Shown here piece after piece: positions 47,929 through 55,748 of a stretch of 64,000 nucleotides of DNA. The stretch lies in the sequence record PZ495249.1. One strand, written 5' to 3'. Each line of letters begins with the position of its first letter. The stretch's first letter is position 1. Both the position numbers and the translations under genes were made by a program. Source of the DNA: a phage. A model generated the notes under the pieces. That model made no database searches. It was not told the origin of the DNA and saw only the letters and a program-made list of their open reading frames with translations.

Positions 47929-49080
47929 TTACACAGCATTTACGGATAAGTAGGAGCTATCAGAAGCAACCACCGTACCTTGATATGTGGCAGTACATCC
48001 TATCCTGCACCCGCCATCGCCTACTCCAGTAATAAGACCATTACTATCAACCGTAGCCACTGTAGGATCTGTTGTGGTATAAGTGATAACCATATCTGAT
48101 AACGACGCTGCACCATCTGGTGTTATCGTTGCCACAAGTTGTTGTGTAGTCCCTACACTCATTGCACTCAAGCTTTCAGTGTACACGCTTAATGTAGATG
48201 CATAGCCTCCAGAACTATCAGAGAGCGTTGTTCCAACATTGTTTTTAGCTGTTAAACTTGCATCGAAACCACCTTCACTAACAAACGACATTAGCCCATT
48301 AGTATCAATGGTCATAATAGAAGTATTACTTGAAGCATAAACTTTATCTGTTATTGGTGCTCCGGTTGGAGTAACAGAGTATGTTAATTGTTTCGTGCCT
48401 CCCACTATTGCAATACCGATGGAATCTGTGGTAATGCTTGTGGCTGTCGGTACTATACTGGTCATGATAGTTAGATCGTCTATTTTACCACGCAGCATTA
48501 GCGCGTTATCTGTAGTCCCAGCAATACAGAAGGGATTAGCAGTATTTCCCCCGAAACCCTTAGAAATAGTTAAAACAGATCCGAGAAAGACATTATCTTT
48601 CTTCACATACAAGCTACTCCCTGACTTCGTTATTGTCAGTCGAAACCAAGTATTAACTGGTAGTGCAGCAGTCCCAAAACGAAATCTTTGGACTTCCCCT
48701 GTCGTGCTGTAGCCATCTATACTAACGGATGCGAATACTTGATACGTATTGTTTAAGGTTATCCACCAACTACCAGAACCAGCATTGTTATTCAAGTTAC
48801 CGCATAGAATAGCTTGAGAGGTGTTATCTAAATATAACCATGTGTCTATAAGTAGGTCGGTAGTAGTCCCAACCACAAGACCAGTAGGTAGGCCACCAGA
48901 CGGGTTTGTAACGGTTATTTTACTATTAGATGTTCCACTAAATATGAGCGAACCTTTCCCTGATGCCGAATCTGTAGACTCGGCAACACCTGCACCCAAG
49001 GTAACTACACCGAATTCTTGCAAGCGTTTAACGATGTAGTTTACGTAAGGCTTTCCTCCGGCGAGTAACACTTCAAGCAT
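47929..49080 (-). CDS. tail fibre/adhesin-like protein with Ig-like (Big_2-type) C-terminal domain
   Basis: TTDPTVATVDSNGLITGVGDGG Ig-like motif; Thr/Ser/Gly-rich; first gene of late leftward block. Confidence 0.65.
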   Translation of the reverse strand: MLEVLLAGGKPYVNYIVKRLQEFGVVTLGAGVAESTDSASGKGSLIFSGTSNSKITVTNPSGGLPTGLVVGTTTDLLIDTWLYLDNTSQAILCGNLNNNAGSGSWWITLNNTYQVFASVSIDGYSTTGEVQRFRFGTAALPVNTWFRLTITKSGSSLYVKKDNVFLGSVLTISKGFGGNTANPFCIAGTTDNALMLRGKIDDLTIMTSIVPTATSITTDSIGIAIVGGTKQLTYSVTPTGAPITDKVYASSNTSIMTIDTNGLMSFVSEGGFDASLTAKNNVGTTLSDSSGGYASTLSVYTESLSAMSVGTTQQLVATITPDGAASLSDMVITYTTTDPTVATVDSNGLITGVGDGGCRIGCTATYQGTVVASDSSYLSVNAV

Positions 49081-49089
49081 AAGTTCACC

Positions 49090-49758
49090 TTAACTAATAA
49101 ATGTATTAGGTACAGCAGGTAGATTCTGCTTACTTGTCGCCTCGTATGTTGCTTTCAAGACAGTCAGATAATTTTGTACCACAACACCCCATTGCTTCAT
49201 AGCTTCATCAATTAGGCCAAGGGTATCTGTTTTATTTAGTGGATTTGACACACCTTCTTTCAGATTGATCAGATAAGTATCGGTGGCAGTTCCGCTGGTA
49301 GCAGACGTTTTGATAATATTTAATAGTGCCATACCATCTGCTGTCATTTGCAGGGTGTAATTTTGACCTGCGTATGTAACAGTGATACCTGTGAAACCAT
49401 CTTGAATAAAGATGTTATACAAGTTAGCTGCTTGACCTTGTTTTCTTTGTGCAAGATCTGCTGCGGCTTCTTGTTCATCAAAATCACGTACAACATAAGT
49501 ACGGTAGAATTTACCATCTGCCCCTTGCACTGGAGTGACTTCTGTAATAACATCACCATCAGGAATAGGTGAATCGAAAATCACAGCATAACCAAACTCT
49601 TCAAGAATGTAATCTCGGCAAGGGTATGGATAACTGATGTTAGTGTTAGAAGCACGAATAGCAGGGAAATAAATAGGCCAAGAAAGATCAGCCATATTAA
49701 TTAACGGGGTGTAATCATAAACCAAAGTAAAATCTTCGATTGAAGTAGTTTCTTCCAT
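49090..49758 (-). CDS. hypothetical structural-module protein (222 aa)
   Basis: track ORF; GGAGGA RBS; between two fibre genes. Confidence 0.55.
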   Translation of the reverse strand: MEETTSIEDFTLVYDYTPLINMADLSWPIYFPAIRASNTNISYPYPCRDYILEEFGYAVIFDSPIPDGDVITEVTPVQGADGKFYRTYVVRDFDEQEAAADLAQRKQGQAANLYNIFIQDGFTGITVTYAGQNYTLQMTADGMALLNIIKTSATSGTATDTYLINLKEGVSNPLNKTDTLGLIDEAMKQWGVVVQNYLTVLKATYEATSKQNLPAVPNTFIS

Positions 49759-52329: not shown

Positions 52330-52360
52330 ATAGAAATTAAAGAGGGGATTTCTCCCCTCT
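52330..52360 (-). terminator. rho-independent terminator (same hairpin as 49780..49799)
   Basis: identical AGAGGGGATTTCTCCCCTCT hairpin; after tailspike gene. Confidence 0.55.
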
Positions 52361-52362
52361 AT

Positions 52363-55300
52363 TTACGTCGTTGGTACATCGTTTGGAGTTGGACGAATTA
52401 CCGCAGTGTTACCCACTGAAACATTACTTGCGTCGTTAGGAACAGTTTTAATTCTAATTCCAGCCGCAGTAGCTGTTTGAATAGGATCGGCAATATCAAT
52501 CTTGACAGGGTTTGTCCACAGGTCATTATCTTGATATGGTGCGCGGGTAATTACAGTATCGAGATCTGCACCACCTGCACCTGCCCCAGGAATACGGATA
52601 CGTGTTCCGGCTGATAATGGGTAATGGTATAACCAAGAAGCGTTTGTCGCCGTTCCATTTGGTACTAAGTTCTGAGCCAGTGATTTATCGCCAACAGTTG
52701 TTGCACGAATTCCGAATGCTGCAATATCTGGGATATATGCACCACTTGTCGTAACAAGGAAGAACGTGTTATCTGCTTTAACGATCATGTCACCTTTATC
52801 AAACTCTTTCCCAGTTGGGAAGTGCAGACCATCAATGTTTCTGCTTGGGTTAGCTTCCAGGTAATAAACCTTTCCGGTAGAACCAAGAAGAGCACCAATT
52901 CCGCCAGCGATGTTGGTATACATGTTGGCTTCAACGTTACAGTTGACACGGTGAATGTCAGAGTAACGGCAACGGCTCCATGCTGGACGACCACTAACCA
53001 TTGTGTTACCATTTGGGTAGCAGTTTACGTTAACCATTTCAAGAACAGATTTCTCGCGACGGAAGAATCCATCGTAGAATGTACCTGGTCCTGACTCTGG
53101 TTGACCAACACACTCGAAGCTGTTACAAGTGATGTTTGACATTGACAGCCAAGAAGCAATACCGAATAGCTGTAGTGCAGCACAACGGATGTTCTCGAAG
53201 CTCACACGGTTTTCAAATCCTGGTCCTGCTGAAACACCTGCGAACACACGCCCTGTGCGGGTATGAACGTTCTTAACAGAGTAGTTGAAGCAAGGGTTTG
53301 AAGGTCTACCTTGTGGTGGCTGAACTGGTTGTCCATCCGGTCCCAATACTGGGTTAGTACCCCACTCCAAGTAAATCAGACGGATATTACTTGCTGGAGT
53401 GTTAGCATCAGTTTTAGGTTCACCGTAAACACCGTCAATCGTGAAGTCTTTGCTTCCGTACATTACCACTGCACCTGTTGCTAAACCAGTACCTGTCGAA
53501 ACAGTCTGATCAGGATCACCGTGGATGTTCTCAATAGTAATGTTACGTCCAACTTCTACGTGAACAATTTGACGACAACGTTTTGCAAACACGTTGCGGA
53601 TTGTGATATTCTTACAGTATTGACTGTCTGGGATATCGTAACCATATGGTCCCTGTCCTGCCACACCGATACCGATACCCCAGTTGGAGTTAGCGATAGG
53701 AGCGTTTGTACCGTCAATGTTAGACAGATAGATGTTCTCGATCACACAACCATCATCATAGTGTTTACTGATAACGTTAAGTTCGATAGCATCACCTTGC
53801 ATATCCATGAAGGTAAGGTTGCGGAATACACCACGAGTTACAGGCTCACCAGTACCTTGTTGAAGAATACCGTATAAACCGTTTTTGAAGGTACAGTTGT
53901 CAATCTCGAATGTACCCGTGATTGGGTTGCCCTGGAATACCAGGCTACCAACTTGTCCTGCGCGTGGCGCACCGTCCCACAGGCAGTCGTAGATACGAAC
54001 TGCACCACCCCAATACATAACGCGAGCGTTACGGAAGGTTACACCTTCTAAGGTAGCATTTTGTAAACGATAGTCACGTTGACCACGGAATACACCACCT
54101 TTCAGCGTGATACCAGTGATATCAAAGCTGCTTGTAGTGAAAGTCATGTCACACCCGTAGGCGTTCAACACTTTCCCTTTGCTGTTAGCAGTTGCTGTCA
54201 GAGCCGCCTGGAAAGCTGCTTCTGGTGTGGTGTATTTTGAATTGTTCGCAAACTCAGACAAGTAAACAACGTCGAACAGATCGTTGAATACACCACCGTG
54301 TGGTGTTAGAAGCGCTTCTGTGTTCGTCAGAACCCAAGTGGTAGGGCTAACCCCTCCGCTGCTTTCTAAAGTGTCTGTAGCTGAAATTGTCTTAGGTAGA
54401 GTACCAGCCCAACGATAACGACCTGAACCCATACCGATAGTTTGGTTCTTGATAGTTAAAGTAGCTGCGTTACCGAAGCTCGTTGGCAGGTGAACAAATT
54501 GTCCACGTTCAACAGCCAGTGCAGCAAGGTCAACTGTACCACCTGAGTAAGTTAACACACCTGTTGCAGAAAGGCTACCGAAGTTACCGCTAATACCTAC
54601 TGGTAGAGTGTACGCTGCTTGGGTTGTAGGATCGTAAAGAGCCTTAATCCCTGTTAGAGACTGCCCTGTTTGTGCTAAACCAACTTCTGCATCTTTCAGA
54701 CCGAACTTACGTGCCACAATCTGTGTTGGAACTTTACTCATCTGAGTCGTCAGATCAGAAGTAGTAGTTTCCAGTGCAGTAACACGGTTTGCCAGGTTAG
54801 GATCGTTATCTGCGGCAGCTACAATTTTACCAATGTACGCAAACAGTTTGTTAGGTAGTCCAGTAGCAGGATCTAAACCAAGAGGTTCAGAAAGAATGAT
54901 CTTGCTGTCCTGAATAGTATACGCATCACCAACAATCTGCACAACCCCGTTGATAGTTACGATAGCACTATCAAACACGTATGGAGGGCTGATAACTTTC
55001 TCATAACCTGTTGCGCCAGTGTACAACCAAGGGTATACTTCGTTAGCAAGCTGTTCAGTTTTCATAGCCCAGAGAACCCAGTTATTATCTCCTACTGGAG
55101 TCCCTTGCATAGGGATTGGGTTAGCGGTTGTCGCTGTTGGAGCGTAGTAATACCCACTCAGAATCCCATTCTGGAAGAAACGGAGTTGGTTAAATACTGT
55201 TTCATTAGTACCTGCCGCCCAAGCGACAGGGCTTTTGAAATAGAAGTTATCAAGCAACGCTTTACGCAGCGTAGGAATTAAACCTGTTTCAGTTTCAACC

Positions 55301-55407
55301 GTAGCTGTCGCAGCACCGTTAATAACATCGTGCAACTGGTTAGAAGAGAAAATAACCAGGTCAACACCCTGATCGAGTGTTGTAGCAGGATATGTTGGAA
55401 ATGCCAT
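52363..55407 (-). CDS. tailspike / receptor-binding protein with parallel beta-helix-like repeats (candidate depolymerase)
   Basis: 1014 aa; repeated N.T..N pattern (NCTFKNG, NITIRNV, NITIENI) typical of pectate-lyase-like beta-helices. Confidence 0.7.
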   Translation of the reverse strand: MAFPTYPATTLDQGVDLVIFSSNQLHDVINGAATATVETETGLIPTLRKALLDNFYFKSPVAWAAGTNETVFNQLRFFQNGILSGYYYAPTATTANPIPMQGTPVGDNNWVLWAMKTEQLANEVYPWLYTGATGYEKVISPPYVFDSAIVTINGVVQIVGDAYTIQDSKIILSEPLGLDPATGLPNKLFAYIGKIVAAADNDPNLANRVTALETTTSDLTTQMSKVPTQIVARKFGLKDAEVGLAQTGQSLTGIKALYDPTTQAAYTLPVGISGNFGSLSATGVLTYSGGTVDLAALAVERGQFVHLPTSFGNAATLTIKNQTIGMGSGRYRWAGTLPKTISATDTLESSGGVSPTTWVLTNTEALLTPHGGVFNDLFDVVYLSEFANNSKYTTPEAAFQAALTATANSKGKVLNAYGCDMTFTTSSFDITGITLKGGVFRGQRDYRLQNATLEGVTFRNARVMYWGGAVRIYDCLWDGAPRAGQVGSLVFQGNPITGTFEIDNCTFKNGLYGILQQGTGEPVTRGVFRNLTFMDMQGDAIELNVISKHYDDGCVIENIYLSNIDGTNAPIANSNWGIGIGVAGQGPYGYDIPDSQYCKNITIRNVFAKRCRQIVHVEVGRNITIENIHGDPDQTVSTGTGLATGAVVMYGSKDFTIDGVYGEPKTDANTPASNIRLIYLEWGTNPVLGPDGQPVQPPQGRPSNPCFNYSVKNVHTRTGRVFAGVSAGPGFENRVSFENIRCAALQLFGIASWLSMSNITCNSFECVGQPESGPGTFYDGFFRREKSVLEMVNVNCYPNGNTMVSGRPAWSRCRYSDIHRVNCNVEANMYTNIAGGIGALLGSTGKVYYLEANPSRNIDGLHFPTGKEFDKGDMIVKADNTFFLVTTSGAYIPDIAAFGIRATTVGDKSLAQNLVPNGTATNASWLYHYPLSAGTRIRIPGAGAGGADLDTVITRAPYQDNDLWTNPVKIDIADPIQTATAAGIRIKTVPNDASNVSVGNTAVIRPTPNDVPTT

Positions 55408-55748
55408 TAATTTTTGTCCTTACTTTGTGTGCGTTTAGTTATTTCCTCTAACATCATCTGGATAGTCGCATTCTTGAGATCCATAATCTTTTCGATTTTC
55501 TGTTCAAGAGCGGTATTGTTTGCCATCAGAGTAGAGTTTATCTGGTTCAGCATCTGAGCAAGTTCGGCTTTCGTTGCGTAAGTTGATTCGACAAAGACGA
55601 GTTTCTTTTCTAATTCTCGATACTTGTCTTCAACTTCTTCTAAATCCGATGACATGTCATCAACTTTCTGTTTGAAGAAGAACCAGATAACACCAATTAA
55701 AGGGAGTATCGTTTCCTTTGCGATATCCCATAGTTCGGTAATTTGCAT
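55407..55748 (-). CDS. hypothetical protein with N-terminal hydrophobic helix (113 aa)
   Basis: track ORF; AAGGAG RBS; ATGA-type overlap with tailspike start. Confidence 0.5.
   Translation of the reverse strand: MQITELWDIAKETILPLIGVIWFFFKQKVDDMSSDLEEVEDKYRELEKKLVFVESTYATKAELAQMLNQINSTLMANNTALEQKIEKIMDLKNATIQMMLEEITKRTQSKDKN

Follow-up and report, generated by a model that had tools for sequence, protein, structure and literature searches.

A modular phage tailspike of the colanidase family, with a beta-helix head probably directed against colanic acid

Colanic acid is an Rcs-induced exopolysaccharide and forms the slime layer of Enterobacteriaceae. Three phage depolymerases of one family, NST1 CAE, Phi92 gp150 and Dep108.1, have been validated. 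The purified NST1 enzyme (ADI49571.1 / HM214492) cleaves colanic acid to repeat units and releases no monosaccharides (PMC9143390). Phi92 gp150, whose structure has been deposited (PDB 6E0V/6E0W; five chains in two entries), hydrolyses the colanic acid backbone at the Glc-Fuc linkage, according to Xu et al. 2025 as cited in PMC13450770. Dep108.1, from phage KPPK108.1, is a depolymerase of K108, a colanic-acid-like capsule (PMC11652154). A 'colanidase-like' class is also listed among the Klebsiella depolymerases in DepoCatalog, the main text of which does not state the substrates of this class. In Stephanstirmvirinae phages, a conserved fibre with colanidase activity has been described (PMC10844046). 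About 60 published phage genomes already carry the label 'colanic acid degradation' on orthologues of the protein considered here; the Phapecoctavirus labels are assignments by homology. On the bacterial side, the last gene of the E. coli colanic-acid cluster encodes WcaM (b2043).

We analysed a stretch of 64,000 nucleotides of phage DNA (sequence record PZ495249.1), referred to below as the window. The preliminary description had placed a 1014-aa open reading frame at 52363-55407, and the ORF list contains it exactly there, on the minus strand and with an ATG start. The gene upstream ends in a stop codon that shares one base with this ATG (TAATG), and AAGGA sits 9 nt 5' of the ATG. A terminator-like hairpin begins 2 nt past the stop codon; the number of terminator-like sites found across the region by the consensus scan was not above shuffle expectation, and the hairpin is a candidate only. 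A promoter scan near the gene likewise gave no enrichment over shuffles. The features of the locus are as follows.

52363..55407, minus strand: tailspike coding sequence (ORF list; ATG start, 1014 aa plus stop codon)
55048..55407, minus strand: baseplate-anchoring N-terminal domain of the PhiTE gp241-N type, PF26208 (aa 1-120; PHROG 4549, Foldseek, relatives)
54808..55047, minus strand: small beta domain after the anchor (aa 121-200; all-beta in the model; PHROG 2710 at aa 122-223)
54703..54801, minus strand: long alpha-helix (aa 203-235; N-terminal model, pLDDT about 90)
54310..54702, minus strand: tandem neck domains of the CBA120 TSP / G7C gp63.1 type, PF18668 Tail_spike_N (aa 236-366)
54148..54300, minus strand: helical cap before the beta-helix (aa 370-420; helices 374-379, 383-387 and 395-408 in both models)
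53008..54147, minus strand: right-handed parallel beta-helix, the predicted catalytic body, Pfam WcaM family PF27800 (aa 421-800; AlphaFold2, Foldseek, motif enrichment)
53428..53910, minus strand: conserved core common to bacterial WcaM, presumed active site, with the NWGIGIG motif (aa 500-660)
52438..53007, minus strand: C-terminal domain after the helix, as in Phi92 gp150 and NST1 CAE (aa 801-990)
52366..52437, minus strand: low-confidence C-terminal tail, probably disordered (aa 991-1014; pLDDT <50 at model residues 623-645)
52341..52360, minus strand: candidate terminator-like hairpin with an 8-bp stem, a GAAA loop and a T-rich tail (read from the sequence and the consensus scan)

The centre of the protein had been said to carry the periodic pattern of a beta-helix. 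This periodicity is real, exceeding chance when aa 421-800 were compared with shuffles of the same residues. The rung motif [ILVF]x[ILVF]x[NDG] was observed 14 times in this region, compared to 5.9 ± 2.1 times after shuffling, and only 2 of 2000 shuffles reached 14. The form [ILVF]x[ILVF]xN[ILVFC] occurred five times (0.5 expected; 0/2000 shuffles), and the literal N.T..N three times (0.15 expected; 2/2000 shuffles). The strictest literal form, [ILV]x[ILV]xN, was by itself not significant in the same region (3 vs 1.1; 197/2000 shuffles). Since the score for Pfam Beta_helix (PF13229) fell below the gathering threshold (11.5 vs 25.9 bits), it was a predicted structure and a fold search, and not the HMM, that confirmed the beta-helix.

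AlphaFold2 predictions were carried out for the monomer. The model of aa 370-1014 (pLDDT 87.7, pTM 0.86) showed short stacked strands that form a right-handed parallel beta-helix, the fold that the preliminary description had anticipated. When this model was searched with Foldseek, the best match by far was the solved colanidase tailspike Phi92 gp150 (6e0v_A: E 8.7e-36, TM 0.78/0.83), which bears out the reading of the protein as a beta-helix tailspike. The next match reached only E 2e-5; those after 6e0v_A were the Sf6, HK620 and Pam1 tailspikes. The C-terminal domain (aa 801-990) was included in the superposition on 6e0v_A, and the alignments reach aa 1000 with 6e0v and aa 986 with NST1. The head thus consists of a beta-helix and a C-terminal domain that are superposable on the gp150 structure. 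The protein would be expected to form a homotrimer.

At the level of sequence, aa 185-995 matched PHROG 6117 'colanic acid degradation' with E 1e-266, and the head is homologous along its whole length to validated members of the colanidase / WcaM-type depolymerases. Identity of the head was 48% to the NST1 colanic acid-degrading protein HM214492 (620 aa, E 2e-171), 34.7% to Phi92 gp150 (550 aa; sequence match to 6e0v, E 2.5e-82) and 28% to Klebsiella Dep108.1 (E 2e-52), in which the motifs are kept. Seven polar residues (Q517, D539, E542, N544, Q613, H616 and E618) showed no variation across the 69 sequences compared, NST1, gp150 and WcaM among them, and all seven are also retained by Dep108.1. 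Their conservation suggests a catalytic role.

Outside the head, the validated relatives differ from the window protein. NST1 CAE, in which all the motifs of the window head are conserved, has 790 aa, and its N-terminus is unrelated. In P0088, P0093 and P0100, which are closely related to it, the N-terminal domain is of the T7-tail-fibre type, and several of these relatives sit on contigs of ~41-43 kb. Phi92 gp150 has the same fold, comes from the same phage subfamily and shares 68.5% identity over its N-terminal ~250 aa, but it is shorter (804 aa) and lacks the CBA120-type neck (no PF18668 in P0012). Dep108.1 is a podovirus spike of 590 aa with the K108 capsule as its substrate.

The relationships within the family were examined with a neighbour-joining tree built on the 161-column core and rooted on WcaM. 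In this tree, the clade descending from the most recent common ancestor of NST1 and gp150 contained the window protein. The mutual identity of NST1 and gp150 is only 30%, and each of them is closer to the window protein. The window protein may therefore lie within a clade bounded by two validated colanidases, a placement that is only modestly supported because the tree was constructed without bootstrap.

The part preceding the head resembles that of a baseplate-attached spike. PHROG 4549 (tail fibre) matched aa 8-115, and a Foldseek search with the N-terminal model hit two chains of the extended baseplate of PhiTE, 9cuy_h and 9cuy_i (38% identity, E 6e-10). PF26208 (Phage_phiTE_241_N) is recorded on P0001, the nearest relative found, and the protein shares the baseplate anchor of this type; the names PF26208 and PF27800 were taken solely from precomputed hits. 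At the sequence level, the small beta domain weakly resembles HRP29 Gp44 (8es4_G) and a tail fibre gp9. In the neck, PF18668 was matched with E 1.8e-8 (34.7 bits, against a cut-off of 25), and sequence matches in the PDB were obtained to 4qnl, 4oj5, 9d84, 5w6f and 5w6h (E 1e-29 to 3e-22). The modelled neck superposes on 9d84_A with an rmsd of 1.2 Å over 139 columns (Foldseek). The anchor is 48% identical to that of a syntenic Klebsiella phage protein; homology between the two stops at aa 231, and their heads are unrelated. The helix at aa 203-235 is probably a trimeric coiled-coil stalk and probably also the joint at which heads get exchanged.

No protein identical in sequence to the window protein was found by look-up, the nearest being P0001 (96% identical). 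Over the head alone, identity was 98% to P0001 and 88-89% to P0002-P0004; the head sequence is therefore well conserved among its closest relatives. A full-length orthologue, phAPEC8 gp088 (YP_007348546.1; 1017 vs 1014 aa), is 84% identical at the aa level and ~77% at the nt level. Its three-part domain set and its place in the tail-fibre module are those of the window protein, from which it differs at ~16% of residues. The gene order in the window (two baseplate genes, a fibre, an assembly protein, a 113-aa protein, the tailspike and a collagen-like fibre) agrees with that of phAPEC8 gp093-gp087, of contig L004 and of Klebsiella phage phi1_175008. The backbone of the window is not that of a Phapecoctavirus, as INPHARED records each cover at most ~54% of the stretches tested.

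The conserved core links the tailspike to WcaM. BLASTP of the core against E. coli K-12 WcaM gave 38% identity over 160 residues (E 2e-25), and the two proteins both carry QGDAIE.NV, NWGIGIG.AG and CRQ..HVE.G. The NCBIfam model for WcaM (TIGR04004) matched the core with E 7.5e-26, but the score of 90.8 bits lay under the equivalog cut-off of 794.6; hence the window protein is a homologue of WcaM and not WcaM proper. WcaM is bacterial and, at 464 aa, has neither the C-terminal domain nor the anchor and neck of the phage protein. When the literature was searched, no relevant account of WcaM as a hydrolase or a beta-helix turned up.

Taking these results together, we infer that the most likely function of the gene is that of a virion-borne tailspike acting as an endo-glycosidase on colanic acid, with a probability of about 0.8. 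As part of this explanation, the virion would be that of a roughly 150-kb Stephanstirmvirinae-type myovirus. The preliminary description had proposed a polysaccharide depolymerase, which the three validated enzymes of the family support, and had suggested O-antigen or capsule as the substrate. The expected substrate can now be refined to colanic acid, an exopolysaccharide, or to a capsule nearly identical with it, with hydrolysis as the expected chemistry; O-antigen drops out. Both activity and substrate would carry over to the window protein from the literature on colanic-acid hydrolysis by its relatives. In the proposed mechanism, the N-terminal ~120 residues would dock the spike on the baseplate, and the small beta domain, the long helix and the two CBA120/G7C-type neck domains would serve as its stalk. 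[quoted passage not shown] The polymer would be bound along the helix and its backbone hydrolysed to repeat-unit oligosaccharides, probably by the invariant carboxylates D539, E542 and E618. Tunnelling through the slime layer in this way would give the phage access to its cell-surface receptors.

Fold, family and hydrolysis might all hold for a different substrate, a K108-like capsule or another enterobacterial exopolysaccharide of a non-E. coli host, which we regard as possible but unlikely. Dep108.1, of the same family, cuts the K108 capsule, and the 'colanidase-like' class of DepoCatalog consists of Klebsiella depolymerases. The validated colanidases are only 35-48% identical to the head; over the range of the validated enzymes as a whole (28-48%), the specificity of a tailspike can change. 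The replication module of the window is closest to those of Klebsiella phages (~82% identical), and the host may therefore not be E. coli. The GC content of the window is about 44%, against 39% in the Phapecoctavirus phages AV125 and AV126 (PMC10844046). Against this, the head is 88-89% identical to the heads of Phapecoctavirus, many such phages having been isolated on E. coli K-12 MG1655, and the two colanidases between which the protein is nested have diverged further from each other than either has from it. Moreover, the related Klebsiella phage has an unrelated head in the same slot, so the Klebsiella-adapted lineage does not use the window head. This slot also permits a doubtful but specific scenario, in which a phage with a Klebsiella-like backbone swapped its capsule-specific head for the colanidase head of an E. 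coli phage, which has perhaps drifted in specificity; the drift may have been towards a K108-like capsule or towards a modified or acetylated form of colanic acid made by a different enterobacterial host. If true, the swap would be a natural cross-genus exchange at the helix of aa 203-235, coupled to a change of substrate.

It is very improbable that the spike merely binds a receptor and has lost catalysis. Non-enzymatic beta-helix spikes are known, and the activity of the window protein is itself extrapolated from relatives. However, the NWGIGIG motif is intact, as is each of the seven invariant polar residues, and the head shows the close identity to P0001 and to P0002-P0004 given above.

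Polysaccharide lyase or epimerase chemistry in place of hydrolysis, to which we give a similarly slight chance, could be read from the PL6 alginate lyases, RbmB and AlgE epimerases among the distant Foldseek matches, and from the glucuronic acid present in the side chain of colanic acid (PMC9143390). These fold matches had query-normalised TM values of 0.17-0.30, with 0.17-0.25 for the polysaccharide lyases, and identities of 9-12%, which is generic beta-helix similarity, and Pfam detected no lyase family in the window protein; this chemistry was rejected. Moreover, the cleavage cited for gp150 is at the Glc-Fuc linkage, where beta-elimination is impossible because no uronic acid is involved. 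An O-antigen-specific tailspike was also rejected: Sf6, HK620 and CBA120 match only at the level of the generic fold (TM about 0.3), and the neck matches do not support such a reading, the necks being modular adaptors and not determinants of specificity.

A tailspike endo-glycosidase acting on colanic acid would be an ordinary and well-understood tail part, since colanidase tailspikes are already annotated, solved and biochemically tested in the subfamily. The weight of the finding for basic science is small, and its practical value modest. It adds a further variant, intermediate in distance between two characterised enzymes, to the enzyme class with which plasmid preparations and fermentation broths are freed of colanic acid and which also serves for the production of colanic-acid oligosaccharides. 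The clean boundary between anchor and head helps tailspike engineering. Finally, the core shared with WcaM provides a testable hypothesis on the function of a long-uncharacterised bacterial gene.

The tailspike gene lies exactly where the preliminary description had placed it: the ORF list gave 52363..55407 (-), with an ATG start and a product of 1014 aa. The ATG overlaps the stop of the gene upstream, which codes for a 113-aa protein, by one base (TAATG), and AAGGA is found 9 nt 5' of it. A hairpin 3' of the tailspike stop, between this gene and that of a collagen-like fibre, may act as an attenuator of read-through inside the fibre operon.

52341-52360, minus strand: terminator-like hairpin with an 8-bp stem, AGAGGGGA-GAAA-TCCCCTCT, then T-rich TTAATTT

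The periodic pattern described earlier for the protein was borne out by counting. The motif hydrophobic-x-hydrophobic-x-Asn/Asp/Gly occurred 14 times, compared with 5.9 ± 2.1 in shuffled sequences (at least 14 in 2 of 2000 shuffles), and clustered in aa 421-800. In the same region, [ILVF]x[ILVF]xN[ILVFC] occurred 5 times, against 0.5 expected by shuffling; none of 2000 shuffles reached 5.

The score of the generic Pfam Beta_helix model on the tailspike was below threshold, and structure prediction was therefore used. The head (aa 370-1014), aligned with 66 homologues, yielded an AlphaFold2 model of short, stacked strands (mean pLDDT 87.7, pTM 0.86). When this model was compared with the PDB using Foldseek, the best match was 6E0V (E 8.7e-36, TM 0.78/0.83), the 'apo crystal structure of the colanidase tailspike protein gp150 of phage Phi92'. 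The next matches were far weaker (Sf6, HK620 and Pam1 tailspikes, PL6 lyases and AlgE epimerases; E ~1e-5, TM ~0.3). The predicted structure thus contains the beta-helix that had been proposed.

PHROG 6117, 'colanic acid degradation', matched aa 185-995 of the tailspike (E 1e-266). A full-length orthologue was present in 63 phage records, mostly Phapecoctavirus (~77% nt, 84% aa identity), where it is usually labelled 'colanic acid-degrading protein'. As these labels were assigned by homology, we searched for biochemically tested members of this compact family (76 clusters at 50% identity, from 1.84 billion representatives). Purified NST1 CAE (HM214492), 48% identical to the window head over aa 371-986 (E 2e-171), cuts colanic acid into repeat units without monosaccharide release (PMC9143390). 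Phi92 gp150, identified among the homologues by 1425 bits against the 6e0v chain, is 34.7% identical to the head, and reportedly cleaves colanic acid by hydrolysis of the Glc-Fuc linkage in its backbone (Xu et al. 2025, cited in PMC13450770). A third tested member, Klebsiella Dep108.1, is 28% identical to the head (E 2e-52) and depolymerises the K108 capsule, described as colanic-acid-like (PMC11652154). When a neighbour-joining tree of a 161-column core was rooted with WcaM, the last common ancestor of NST1 and gp150 took in the window protein. Since it falls inside this clade, and NST1 CAE and gp150 are a mere 30% identical to each other, the window protein is bracketed by enzymes acting on the same substrate.

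The tailspike is an orthologue of a kind for which annotation, a solved structure and biochemical characterisation already exist, and the earlier proposal of a polysaccharide depolymerase appears correct. A baseplate-anchored spike hydrolysing colanic acid is the most likely account (probability about 0.8). That the same type of enzyme has shifted its substrate, for example to a K108-like capsule, is improbable. A spike that only binds, with no catalysis, is very unlikely. Lyase chemistry instead of hydrolysis is just as unlikely, because the reported cleavage site lacks a uronic acid and no lyase family was detected in the tailspike.

The NCBIfam WcaM family was detected in aa 500-660 (E 7.5e-26), far under the equivalog cut-off. 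E. coli K-12 WcaM, whose gene closes the colanic-acid cluster, is 38% identical to the tailspike core over 160 aa (window 53428-53910), with the motifs QGDAIE.NV, NWGIGIG.AG and CRQ..HVE.G in common. Q517, D539, E542, N544, Q613, H616 and E618 were invariant in 69 of 69 sequences (phage heads, NST1, gp150 and WcaM). From conservation alone, we infer that D539, E542 and E618 may be the catalytic carboxylates. In K-12, the only annotation of wcaM (L002:4503-5897) is 'putative colanic acid biosynthesis protein', and the literature searched contained nothing on WcaM as a colanic-acid glycosidase. Since WcaM has the phage colanidases' invariant polar residues and their motifs (the Pfam family of both is named 'WcaM'), the comparison suggests that it may itself be such a glycosidase.

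A second model, of aa 1-430, had a pLDDT of 84.7 and a pTM of 0.47; the latter is expected, as the domains are arranged like beads on a string.

aa 1 to ~120: baseplate-anchor-like domain, resembling the PhiTE extended baseplate chains 9cuy_h and 9cuy_i (38% identity)
aa 121-200: small beta domain
aa 203-235: single long helix
aa 236-366: tandem neck domains of the CBA120 TSP1/3/4, G7C gp63.1 and Shigella phage B2 Gp48 type

In agreement with the 9cuy match, Pfam Phage_phiTE_241_N is recorded on the closest, 96%-identical protein. In public data the colanidase head is modular, being fused to P22-type head-binding or T7-type fibre N-termini, CBA120-type necks or a Phi92-type anchor; the anchor is likewise joined to many other heads. 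The same-slot protein of Klebsiella phage phi1_175008 (L006:13475-16393) has aa 3-231 alone in common with the tailspike (48%), followed by an unrelated head. Because this homology stops at aa 231, the head-exchange joint was placed in the long helix. A 4.73-Mb E. coli chromosomal contig also codes for a colanidase-type head, of 809 aa, which presumably belongs to a prophage.

All neighbours of the tailspike gene are on the same strand, and their order matches phAPEC8: baseplate wedge, baseplate protein, tail fibre, fibre assembly protein, 113-aa protein, tailspike, collagen-like fibre. Stephanstirmvirinae are described with several fibre/spike sets, a conserved colanidase among them (PMC10844046).

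59732-62566, minus strand: 944-aa ORF with no Pfam match, at the position of phAPEC8 gp095
55407-55748, minus strand: 113-aa protein directly upstream of the tailspike, 'lipoprotein' in PHROG 15210 and phage records
49804-52296, minus strand: 830-aa collagen-repeat fibre downstream of the tailspike, with a Tail_spike_N neck (aa 11-77) and a Fibritin_C-like segment
47929-49758, minus strand: 222-aa and 383-aa ORFs beyond the collagen-like fibre, the latter with Big_2 and a sub-threshold Laminin_G_3

phAPEC8 gp095 is annotated 'putative endo-N-acetylneuraminidase', and its positional counterpart, the 944-aa ORF, may be a second enzymatic spike. Despite its label, the 113-aa protein has no cysteine, so no lipobox is possible; its sequence suggests a hydrophobic helix at the N-terminus and a coiled coil after it. 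It also weakly matches Rz-like spanins. The 830-aa fibre (674 aa in phAPEC8 gp087) starts straight with its neck and lacks a baseplate anchor; it may dock on another fibre protein, as happens in the branched assemblies of CBA120 and G7C. The stretch 47929-49758 is a variable end of the fibre module: phAPEC8 has one 891-aa tail protein there, and on the metagenomic contig L004 two genes, of 216 and 494 aa, occupy the site.

That 154-kb contig, which encodes the 96%-identical protein, has the same gene order as the window. The window's tail region matched Phapecoctavirus at ~75% nt over 46% of 24 kb, and its replication region matched Klebsiella phages at ~82% over ~54%; its GC content is ~44%, compared with ~39% reported for Phapecoctavirus. 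The phage probably belongs to Stephanstirmvirinae as a species or genus not yet described. Its genome is a mosaic, the replication and metabolism genes (15001-40000) being nearest to Klebsiella phi1_175008, KP2025 and KP13-26 (~82% nt) and the tail module (40000-64000) to E. coli Phapecoctavirus (~75-77% nt). A Phapecoctavirus-type tailspike gene is also present in records, OP562383.1 and OR584014.1 among them, whose names refer to phages of Acinetobacter, Pseudomonas and Campylobacter; it is ~77% identical to that of the window, as are the E. coli phage genes. The host labels of these two and of a Campylobacter record look doubtful.

As a colanic-acid hydrolase, the spike, probably trimeric, would be fixed to the baseplate and would bind colanic acid along the length of its beta-helix, hydrolysing the backbone to repeat-unit oligosaccharides. 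The slime layer would thereby be stripped, and the other fibres would gain access to surface receptors.
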